A DNA stretch of 64,000 bases from Rhizophagus irregularis (GCF_026210795.1 NC_089436.1:2542001-2606000); one strand, 5' to 3'; positions 45,976 through 49,808 are shown, counted from the stretch's first letter. Numbers and translations are program-made. The notes: generated by a model from the sequence alone, not told the origin.

Positions 45976-48900
45976 TCAACTGTGTGTTTTCAATTGTTTG
46001 ATTTCTTCGCAGCTAGATGCTGCAGTGGACTCAGGAGATAAATAAATGCTTACGTTTAGTGCTTCAAGAACAGCAAAATAAGGGGAAGCTATGCCATATG
46101 TTTGGTATGGTGTTATCCACTTTGCATGAAGGATACCAAGAGCTTTTCCTCTTTCATCTATAATGCTTGCCCCTGAGTCACCAGATTCAAACTCTCCAGA
46201 TTCAAATTTAAATGCCAATTGACGATCAAACCACTTAATAGGATAGCATTTCTTGCGATTTTGATGAATTTCTGAATCTAATCGTGACTTCATATATCCA
46301 ATAAAAATTCTTTGATCTTCATTACAATAATTGGGAATATGTTTTTCCATTTCTAACTTCTTTGCAATTTTAATGCTTTCATTTATCAAGCTACAGGCAA
46401 TAGCTTGTTCAGTAGGAAGTAATCTCCCAATAGTAAGACCCGTAGTTCGTCCTACTTTAAAAACTTTAGTATTATAATCAAAATTCTTAAAATCTTTTCT
46501 AGTATAAACACCTTCCAAACAAGTTGGAAGTCCATTATTTGTGAAGTAATTCGAAAAGATTGGAAATTCTTTTGAGCGTAACATACGATTCTTATTACTA
46601 AAAATACAAAATCCGGCATCAACACCATAATTCTTGTTATCTACACTTGAGAGGAAGTTTTCTCGCATTCCTCTTACATGAATAGCCAGCGTTGAATTTC
46701 TTTTTTCTGCTATTTTAAGTTTTCTTTCCATTTCTTCAATTTCATCAATATATTCACTTTTCCTTGCTCCTGATGCTTGTGATAGTCCAAATAATTCATT
46801 TAATTTTCTTTTTGGTTCAAACAAGTCTTCATAGGAAGGTTGATAAACAACATTATTTTGGGTATCTAATTCATTAAATTTGAGCACATGTTCACATGAA
46901 ACAATGCCAATCTTATTTGGTGATTCATTTTCATAAGCCACAGCACTTAAAGTTCCAGTTGTATTTTCTTTTTCTAATCCTATACCTATACTTGATCCTA
47001 ATTTAACATCATCTTGATAACGTCGACAAGTATCTATGCCTAAACCAACACAAGGAATTGCAGTACATGCTTCAACAACATCTACCGGAAACCCACAAAT
47101 TTTTTCTGGAAATATACCACCACAGCCACGACGTAAAATACCCTTTTGGCGAACATATAATATAATTGCTGGTATTTCAGTCAACTGTCCATTAATTCTT
47201 TTATATCCAGTACTCACGCCAACCAGATTATAATGTTTTTCGCGGAATGTTAATCCTAATTCATTATCTAAAGCTTCATTAAATTTCTCTTTCAGATCTT
47301 GTGGAATCTCTATTGAATTTGGTAAAGGGTCATCCGCGCTAGCAAATCCTTCCTCCTCCGCAATAAAATAAATTACTTGATTATCTGCAATTGTTTCCGT
47401 CTTAGTACTTGAATACAAACCACGTGTAATCACATAAACGTGCCATGTTGCACTACCCGCAAAATATTCTTCGATAGGTTGGCCCCAAAATATATCTACA
47501 ACGTCATCTTTCATATATAGTTCACAGAGACGTGTTTCAAGTGCATCACTCCAGAATATAGAATCTTTTGCTTCTATATTTAACAAGATTTAATAACAAA
47601 AAAATTATGAAATATGCAACATTATTTTTTTTACCTGAGTTATTAAAATTATCATCTAAAAAAGTAAAAGAAAAACAATGATTATTAGTATTGTAATACA
47701 ATAAACATCATTAAAAAATTAAAAAATCAATATTTTTAAAATCTTACTACTGGGAAATAATTCATCTTGCTTCTCTGAATGAAACTTCGGACTTTTATTT
47801 TCATCTAAATATAATAAATAAATAAATTATTAATTAAATATTCTTTATAATTAATATTATTAAAAGAGTTATAATATTTGTGTGCGTATTATAAATCTTT
47901 ATCAACTTATTTACCAATCTTATAAAGAAATCCAAGTTTATACTGTGCATTACTAAATCCTTGCTGAGCTGCTTTTTGATACCAATAAGAAGCTTCAACT
48001 TCATCCTTTTCAATACCAATTCCTTCTTCATAACAAACACCTAAATTAAATTGTGCTTCTTTATCTCCATTTTCTGCTACTTTTTGCAACCAATAGAAGG
48101 CTTTTTCTAAATTCTTTTCTGTTCCATTTCCATTTTTATAACATATGGCTAAATTATTCATTGCATCAATATGATCTCTTTCTGCTGCTTTTTGGTACCA
48201 ATAGAAGGCTTTTTCTAAATTCTTTTCTGTTCCTTTTCCATTATAATAACTATTAGCTAAACTATTCATTGCAACTTCATTATCATTTTCTGCTGCTTTC
48301 TGATACCAATGAAAGGCTTTTCCTAAATTCTTTTCTGTTCCTTCTCCATTATAATAACTATTGGCCAAATTCTTCATTGCAACTTCATTATCATTTTCTG
48401 CTGCTTTTTGATACCAATAGAAGGCTTTTTCTAAATTCTTTTCTGTTCCTTTTCCATTATGATAACATATGGCTAAACTATTCATTGCAACTTTATTACC
48501 ATGTTCTGCTGATTTTTGATACCAATAAAAGACTTTTTCTAAATTCTTTTCTGTTTCTTTTCCATTATAATAATATATGGCTAAATTCTTCATTGCAACT
48601 TCATTATAATTTTCTGCTGCTTTTTGATACCAATAGAAAGCTTTTTCTAAATTCTTTTCTGTTCCTTTTCCATTATAATAACAATCAGCTAGAGTAAACA
48701 TTGCTTCTTTATCACCATTTTCTACTGCTTTTTGATACCAATGAAAGGCTTTTTCTAAATTCTTTTCTGTTCCTTCTCCATTATAATAACTAATGGCTAA
48801 ATTATTCATTGCATATTCATTACCATTAACTGCTGCTTTTTGATACCAATAGAAGGCTTTTTCTAAATTCTTTTCTGTTTCTTTTCCATTATAATAATAT

Positions 48901-49808
48901 ATGGCTAAATTCTTCATTGCAACTTCATTATAATTTTCTGCTGCTTTTTGATACCAATAGAAAGCTTTTTCTAAATTCTTTTCTGTTCCATTTCCATTAT
49001 AATAACAATCAGCTAGAGTAAACATTGCTTCTTTATCACCATTTCCTACTGCTTTTTGATACCAATGAAAGGCTTTTTCTAAATTCTTTTCTGTTCCTTC
49101 TCCATTATAATAACTAATGGCTAAATTATTCATTGCATATTCATTACCATTTTCTGCTGCTTTTTGATACCAATAGAAGGCTTTTTCTAAATTCTTTTCT
49201 ATTCCTTCTCCATTATAATAACTATTGGCCAAATTATTCATTGCAAATTCATTATCATTTTCTGCTGCTTTTTGATACCAATAGAAAGCTTTATCTAAAT
49301 TCTTTTCTGTTCCTTTTCCATCATGATAACATATAGCTAAATTATTCATTGCAAATTCATTATCATTTTCTGCTGCTTTTTGATACCAATAGAATGCTTT
49401 TTCTAAATTCTTTTCTGTTCCTTCTCCATTATAATAACTAATGGCCAAATTATCCATTGCAAATTTATTACCATTTTCTGCTGCTTTTTGATACCAATAG
49501 AAAGCTTTTTCTAAATTCTTTTTTGTTACTTCTCCATTATAGTAACAACTGGCTAAATTATTCATTGCAACTTCATTACCATTTTCTGCTGCTTTTTGAT
49601 ACCAATAGAAAGCTTTTTCTAAATTCTTTTCTGTTCCTTCTCCATTATAATATCTAATAGCCAAATTATCCATTGCAAATTTATTACCATTTTCTGCTGC
49701 TTTTTTATTTTGATGAAATAATTCAGTTTCATTTTTTACACTATCAATTACATTTTTATAATAAATGTCATTTTCATTTTGTGTTTTATTGCATTTTTGT
49801 TCAGACAT
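45976..49808 (-). CDS. D: ~16 Sel1 repeats fused to a trypsin-like (NAL1/Ssy5-like) serine protease, 4 exons, ~1189 aa
   Basis: complement(47915-49808, 47748-47804, 47635-47655, 45976-47573) is in frame with GT-AG introns. Protease motifs: TGTLSA, SCEHV (His), GVDAG (Asp), KVGRTTGLT, GDSGA (Ser). A NAL1-like AIILYVRQK..P..I.G..VDVVE segment precedes them. Confidence 0.75.
47960..49700 (-). repeat. 108-bp (36-aa) Sel1 tandem repeat array of high internal identity
   Basis: Unit xxAMxxLAxxYxxGxGTEKNLEKAFYWYQKAAENxx; 16 full units plus a partial one. Confidence 0.95.

Follow-up and report, generated by a model that had tools for sequence, protein, structure and literature searches.

A spliced Sel1 array-serine protease gene with a probably NAL1-like fold beside MLKL-like genes of Rhizophagus irregularis: a candidate recognition-coupled protease

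We analysed a stretch of AT-rich eukaryotic DNA from Rhizophagus irregularis (GCF_026210795.1, NC_089436.1:2542001-2606000; hereafter the window, 64,000 nucleotides in all, from whose first letter positions are counted), and within it a minus-strand gene at 45976..49808 that couples an array of Sel1 repeats to a serine protease. Its four exons, all on the minus strand, give one frame of 1189 amino acids with a single terminal stop. Exon 1 (47915..49808, residues 1-632) encodes a short leader and the Sel1 array (Pfam Sel1, E 1.9e-175, 16 stretches); exon 2 (47748..47804, 57 nucleotides, residues 632-651) and exon 3 (47635..47655, a 21-nucleotide micro-exon, residues 651-658) encode a linker; and exon 4 (45976..47573, residues 658-1189), the last, contains the entire protease module. 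The three introns (47805..47914, 110 nucleotides; 47656..47747, 92 nucleotides; 47574..47634, 61 nucleotides) are all GT-AG and phase 1, with a GC content of 12-15%. The initial annotation, made from the DNA alone, had joined two long minus-strand open reading frames (ORFs; 47907-49874 and 45976-47589) through the 57- and 21-nucleotide exons into a product of about 1189 residues lacking an evident signal peptide. This model was borne out: the predicted product is exactly 1189 residues long and identical to P0082, which is OCT59_028459 or XP_025180026.2 of R. irregularis, annotated as uncharacterised, and its first 40 residues contain no hydrophobic stretch (best nine-residue hydropathy -0.12). 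Proteins encoded in the window agree exactly with R. irregularis entries, and the gene model is public, yet undescribed. Only the description of both small exons as micro-exons needs correction, as the 57-nucleotide exon is not strictly one. Both are phase 1-1, have lengths that are multiples of three and together encode a 26-residue linker, hence they are skippable, ordinary frame-neutral linker exons, and we rejected the idea that they are special features.

As many as 262 GT-AG paths preserve the frame, and 22 of these use strong sites, so that the frame alone is weak proof, and independent support was therefore sought in four sequencing runs, none recorded as RNA, of which three supported splicing. 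Contig record 11 of run X2 (820 letters) aligned to 46906-47573, 47635-47655, 47748-47802 and 47915-47975 with 0 differences and with all three introns removed, the two letters between its last two pieces falling within a masked stretch. Two introns were removed in run X16 and one in run X11; the joint 47573/47635 was found in X16, X2 and X11, the joint 47655/47748 in X16 and X2, and the absence of intron 1 in the X2 contig. No splice evidence was found at this gene in run X19. The exact loss of GT-AG introns marks the X2, X16 and X11 contigs as spliced transcripts. The X2 contig, which is not a single molecule, extends just 61 nucleotides into the Sel1 exon, and the repeats further upstream lie outside it. 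The Sel1 array-protease gene is real, and is one spliced gene. An additional upstream kinase exon, as present in the R. clarus orthologue, was considered but not supported, as tblastn of P0087 gave no kinase match between 49.9 and 63.3 kb.

The protease module begins with an extra alpha/beta domain of about 75 residues (47347..47571, minus strand), which is well predicted (mean pLDDT, the predicted local distance difference test, 88.4 over module residues 1-174), and for which a fold search with residues 1-174 gave no clear match (best Z 4.8 over the first 75 residues). It is followed on the same strand by a domain matching the ATP-binding domain of rice NAL1 (47050..47310) and by a domain of predicted trypsin fold with two inserted helical stretches (46036..47013). 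The catalytic triad, H886 (46890-46888), D976 (46620-46618) and S1124 (46176-46174), is intact, as first proposed. Of the 78 near homologues examined, 14 have a gap in the triad columns and 62 of the other 64 keep the triad intact, as do 28 of 28 distant homologues picked for full length. In P0016 and P0027, Asn replaces the catalytic Asp, and these are possibly inactive paralogues.

This protease is not a plain trypsin, and its predicted structure is likely to be NAL1-like. A 42-sequence profile searched against PDB ranked rice NAL1 first (E 1.6e-6), and Foldseek with an AlphaFold model of the module (pLDDT 75.8, predicted template modelling score 0.75) likewise placed NAL1 on top (E 3.4e-17). 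The full structural alignment superposed model residues 87-525 on residues 91-461 of 8pn2_A (Z 26.2, root mean square deviation 4.9, 322 residues), with alpha-lytic-type proteases as the runner-up fold family (Z 18.6), and the Atlas search was concordant, with NAL1 clusters at 0.97. The Pfam match to NAL1_N is below threshold (21.9 bits against a cut-off of 27), the curated cut-off being reached for neither NAL1_N nor Nal1_C; at E up to 1, 39 of the 42 family members match NAL1_N (best 7.6e-6). The protease module found no match in PADLOC. NAL1 is reported to be a hexameric cage with a structural ATP in its N-terminal domain, and to require the hexamer for activity (PMC12012508). Like rice NAL1, the protein places an ATP-binding-type domain ahead of a two-barrel serine protease, lacks a signal peptide, and has a triad that aligns (H886 with H234). 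In the putative ATP site, K782, K801, D822 and V823 stand at the positions of R120, K139, D166 and V167 and count as four kept positions, the last three with the NAL1 residue itself, and the equivalents of R122 and K123 vary. Among near homologues in which the position is occupied, the K139 equivalent is invariant in 71 of 71 and the D166 equivalent in 74 of 74. Unlike NAL1, to which identity is 14-20%, the module has the extra 75-residue domain and the two helical insertions, a 600-residue Sel1 array replaces the N-terminal arm, and a cage is here predicted by analogy.

The resemblance to alpha-lytic-type enzymes bears on one rather improbable explanation, in which the protein would be a signalling zymogen comparable to Ssy5 or SltB, removing its own N-terminal part and then processing one transcription factor of a nutrient or stress pathway. 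Like Ssy5 (family S64) and Aspergillus SltB, it is an intracellular fungal chymotrypsin-fold protease with a large regulatory N-terminal part; SltB, a cytoplasmic protein with pseudokinase and chymotrypsin parts, is reported to process itself and to cut SltA (PMC4985261), kinase-protease fusions exist among the homologues found here, and NAL1 itself is reported to degrade transcription regulators (PMC12012508). A faint resemblance links the two small domains preceding the protease to the pro region of alpha-lytic protease, although at a Z of 4.0 it falls within background. Moreover, Peptidase_S64 is absent from the three Pfam matches of the query at E up to 1, and from the 25 of 34 Pfam families listed for the 42 members. 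Families of the S64 type are described as mostly single-copy and limited to Dikarya (PMC5567314), and Ssy5 and SltB have no repeat array, whereas the family studied here is multi-copy with swapped heads. Among the NAL1, S64 and S1 families named for comparison in the initial annotation, NAL1 was best by profile, Foldseek and full alignment and S64 fell away, and the label of a trypsin-like protease stands for its fold and triad, the enzyme being NAL1-like rather than classical S1.

The second half of the gene, exon 1, is all Sel1, with no Pfam match to NACHT or NB-ARC. Seventeen repeat starts lie at exact 36-residue spacing, 16 repeats being full and the last partial, and the first 15 have a mean DNA identity of 87%; in amino acids, mean repeat identity is 76%. 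The best 108-residue self match of the array (92.6%) exceeds the mark of 85% over 100 residues, and internal conservation at that mark is reported to be enriched in sensors of the NOD-like receptor (NLR) type in fungi (PMC4986451). Six positions of helix A carry 17 non-synonymous and 1 synonymous changes, and the other 30 positions carry 29 and 12, respectively. These six we take to be the putative binding face, following TPR numbering. P0277, which from its neighbours and nearly identical linker is probably an allele, has a protease 97.5% identical to that of the window gene but an N-terminal part 74.6% identical, and shares 0 of 15 repeats. P0085, an older model from the same strain, has three repeats fewer, hence repeat counts across assemblies are unsafe. 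The internal conservation, helix-A variation and allele turnover are marks of a sensor, in agreement with the earlier view of the array. They also liken it to the WD, TPR and ANK repeat sensors of fungal NLRs of the het-e type, which share near-identical repeats, allele turnover and few variable helix positions; unlike these, the gene lacks NACHT or NB-ARC, and its repeats are N-terminal and of Sel1 type.

Our preferred interpretation, to which we assign a probability of about 0.45, is that the Sel1 array and the NAL1-type protease form a recognition-coupled intracellular protease of fungal non-self surveillance, whose substrate is not necessarily encoded nearby. Through its concave face, the array would bind a protein that varies and is probably foreign, and binding would both aim the protease and switch it on inside the fungal cell. 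The protease is predicted to assemble like the rice NAL1 cage, presumably with oligomer-dependent activation as in NAL1, and the protein cut would most likely be the ligand itself or a signalling protein of the host, maybe encoded elsewhere. A repeat-sensor protease built on the NAL1 type is what our data suggest to be new here: across full-text literature that covered few subscription papers, we found nothing on a fungal NAL1-type family or on Sel1-protease genes beside MLKL-like genes, and fungal NLR effectors are covered without mention of Sel1 in the accessible part of PMC9815663.

Several observations weigh against this interpretation. The p-values for helix A (Fisher 0.049, permutation 0.0008) are optimistic, as the positions were picked after seeing the repeat alignment, and over the whole repeat the proportion of non-synonymous differences (0.12) is below that of synonymous ones (0.17). 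Sel1 genes are reported to be among the most amplified families of the R. irregularis genome (bioRxiv 2021.03.30.436303), and contigs cover the array hundreds to thousands of times more deeply than its flanks; with such amplification the turnover could be neutral repeat exchange, so that turnover alone is no proof of selection. In the protease, two of the four basic ATP residues of NAL1 (R122, K123) are not retained, and the N-terminal strand that forms the NAL1 hexamer has no evident match in the module. In the poly(A) run X24, the mean depth of the protease exon is 0-0.68, against 4-31 for the neighbouring gene A3 described below, in counts that represent 24% of the run, come from a strain of no recorded identity and can include cross-mapping paralogues. 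Finally, the recognition role, with its ligand, substrate and activity, is a proposal.

The distribution of the module in other proteins bears on how the gene arose. The homologues number 78 (71 plus 7), the named ones being all from Glomeromycota or Endogonales, and their heads, as read from precomputed Pfam, comprise Crinkler (9), Sel1 (5), kinase (5) and HMG box (1, with 2 more by name). HMG, zinc knuckle, sacsin, glutathione peroxidase and pyridoxal phosphate (PLP) enzyme heads occur in one to three each, and some one-off heads may be gene-model errors. Trypsin is a listed C-terminal domain of CR (Crinkler-RHS) proteins (PMC5289972, citing Zhang et al. 2016), a listing that may already include this module, and the Crinkler heads on 9 of the 78 homologues recall these, unlike the window gene, which has none. 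A profile search recovered 3486 representatives at E up to 0.001, and the 52 distant matches scanned included TPR arrays in two (P0134, P0166) and Roc-COR in one (P0211). With P0103, these three show the sensor-plus-protease layout also outside fungi, and a soft coral homologue was seen among the 150 of 3486 matches listed. Patterns derived from Glomeromycota matched 119 times in prokaryote genomes and 81 times in viral contigs, with 0 confirmed relatives, a result that for patterns of this origin argues weakly for absence. In the window the module follows a phase-1 acceptor; a metagenome scan yielded four loci of 1-4 kb, and in 4 of 4 a candidate phase-1 acceptor lies 80-83 nucleotides before the conserved Trp, among other AG sites. 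In two of these loci (L002:2008-3843 and L003:1-1992) a head that we assume from motif resemblance to be Crinkler-like stands before the protease module, with a probable phase-1 intron between. A single exon behind a phase-1 acceptor, combined with varied heads, fits a cassette shuffled behind different heads, and we infer that the module is such a last-exon cassette, the heads serving for targeting.

It is conceivable, if on balance unlikely, that exon shuffling within a repeat-rich compartment produced the gene as a by-product, an active protease exon having gained a Sel1 array by chance, and that neither the array nor the neighbourhood has a specific function. The diversity of heads, among which the PLP enzyme, glutathione peroxidase and sacsin ones look like isolated fusions or faulty gene models, would agree with this, as would the R. 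clarus orthologue, which has a kinase and a different array (N-terminal part 39% identical), the inverted-repeat elements that fill the 12 kb upstream of the gene, and the low read cover in one RNA set. However, the Sel1 head is retained in R. irregularis strains, R. clarus and G. cerebriforme, the 631-codon repeat exon is free of stops despite wholesale repeat replacement, and spliced transcripts were found in three studies.

We additionally identified four genes in the window that encode a helical bundle (a weak MLKL_N match), a kinase fold and Sel1 repeats (A genes); MLKL-like Sel1 proteins of Glomeromycotina have already been noted (PMC8778642). The nearest, A3 (OCT59_028458, 41753..43890, plus strand), encodes an MLKL_N-like helical bundle, a kinase domain without the DFG Asp, and Sel1 repeats; its intron (43095-43195) is spliced in 21 poly(A) reads of run X24. 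It is convergent with the protease gene on the opposite strand, 2085 nucleotides from the protease stop, which agrees with the distance of about 2 kb first reported. Two further A genes, with approximate ends, lie on the minus strand at 35045..37168 and 17974..20079, and a fourth (62515..64000, minus strand), cut by the end of the window and 99.6% identical to P0240, places the cluster on both sides of the protease gene. The DFG Asp is missing in 16 of 16 aligned A proteins, which are thus likely pseudokinases. Three intron-rich genes with two kinase domains each were also observed, at 20835-23212 and 37938-40359 on the plus strand and at about 30100-32619 on the minus strand; two of these tandem-kinase genes are divergent from an A gene, and an A-type pseudokinase forms the end of the third. 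This layout of kinases and pseudokinases recalls RIPK3/MLKL and plant tandem kinases.

Linkage outside the window was read from accession numbers, locus tags and the lengths of contigs. Protease orthologue and A gene are 1-9 accessions apart in R. irregularis (UZO08196/UZO08197) and other strains of it (CAB4393196-7/CAB4393204, CAB5366712-3/CAB5366721, CAB5207902/CAB5207894), in R. clarus (GES98783/GES98786), in R. diaphanus (RGB31473/RGB31481) and in Glomus cerebriforme (RIA93087 and RIA93093 flanking RIA93089). A quick tree of 65 rows, with a short fragment as its G. cerebriforme row, places the linked proteases in a single group (support 92), which also includes one unlinked G. cerebriforme copy; the linked copies, belonging to one orthologous group, therefore count as one ancestral event. 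We infer that this copy entered the MLKL-like cluster before the Rhizophagus species split. Most paralogues are elsewhere: in G. cerebriforme an A gene is shared on 1 of 7 protease contigs and a protease on 1 of 3 MLKL-like contigs, in Diversispora 0 of 3 protease scaffolds (140, 198, 465) are shared, the MLKL-like match being on scaffold 86, and in R. irregularis OCT59 1 of 3 protease loci is linked, in an A-gene search that is incomplete (533 candidates scored, at least 31 matches). Unlinked paralogue clusters also recur across species (OCT59_0198xx, RclHR1_028300xx, C1645_8173xx). The co-occurrence with A genes anticipated in the initial annotation was hence found in four Rhizophagus and Glomus species, as a single inherited event, and the functional linkage that it had drawn from this is not sustained by one orthologous group with most paralogues on other contigs.

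These data bear on a further explanation, in which the protease would serve the cluster as its sensor arm, and its cut in a nearby MLKL-like pseudokinase or tandem kinase would set off or halt lytic cell death. The adjacency across species and the A genes on both sides would agree with it, as would the fact that the linked copies are the long-array Sel1 ones, with the exception of P0078. There are also precedents: about 80% of fungal gasdermin genes are reported to cluster with proteases, often repeat-fused (PMC10197012), and an echinoderm MLKL to be activated by a caspase cut at Asp17 (PMC11932488). In contrast, the linked proteases amount to one event, only a minority of protease contigs or loci are shared with A genes while unlinked clusters recur, and candidate activating kinases are already present in the cluster. 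The 16 aligned A-protein leaders vary in length and sequence, with no conserved cleavage site among them. We consider this explanation unlikely, and equally doubtful its fuller form, in which arbuscular mycorrhizal (AM) fungi would own a protease-triggered, necroptosis-like system whose Sel1-array NAL1-type cage protease senses a foreign protein and cuts clustered MLKL-like pseudokinases or tandem kinases. If true, gasdermin-S8 and gasdermin-CHAT would be joined by a third fungal pairing of death effector and protease, and the NAL1 family would acquire its first role in immunity.

The analogy with gasdermin systems drawn in the initial annotation is a loose one. Like the proteases that activate fungal gasdermins (HET-Q2-like Q2L and CHAT), the window protein joins superstructure-forming repeats to a protease, and its gene neighbours that of a putative membrane-attacking death protein. 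However, those proteases are reported to be of S8 or CHAT type (PMC10197012), that is S8 or caspase-like, whereas a trypsin fold is predicted here; the neighbour is an MLKL-like pseudokinase rather than a gasdermin; and linkage is about 80% there (PMC10197012) against a minority here. A Pfam scan of 17 of the 55 window ORFs of at least 100 residues found no gasdermin family, a search that divergent fungal gasdermins may escape.

The preferred reading of the gene as a recognition-coupled protease, with its substrate possibly elsewhere, matters in several respects. AM fungi possess numerous kinase and Sel1 genes without a known use, and little work has been done on how they defend themselves against non-self; a fast-changing Sel1 array tied to an enzyme with a simple readout makes the sensor idea testable in a heterologous host. 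The NAL1 type, known in the papers found from rice and maize development, is extended to fungi and animals, as a shuffled module behind Crinkler, kinase, TPR and Roc-COR heads. Should the neighbouring MLKL-like proteins be cleaved, a new death pathway would be defined.

Finally, we observed other elements in the window, two of them among the inverted-repeat elements upstream of the protease gene. That at 54671-56534 has terminal inverted repeats of about 200 nucleotides (arms of 97% and 83%) and is probably a transposon; an ORF within it (55228-55650) has a weak OTU-protease match (E 0.015). Nested inverted repeats at 60163-61473, including 217-nucleotide arms that are 95% complementary and 22 nucleotides apart, enclose a cysteine-rich ORF (60875-61336) without a Pfam match. 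Five plus-strand ORFs at 7744-11357 resemble one intron-split transposon-like gene, the three scanned giving no convincing Pfam family. Purine-rich low-complexity tracts (GC skew above 0.4) lie immediately upstream of two genes, the protease gene (50500-51200) and a kinase gene (33430-34290).

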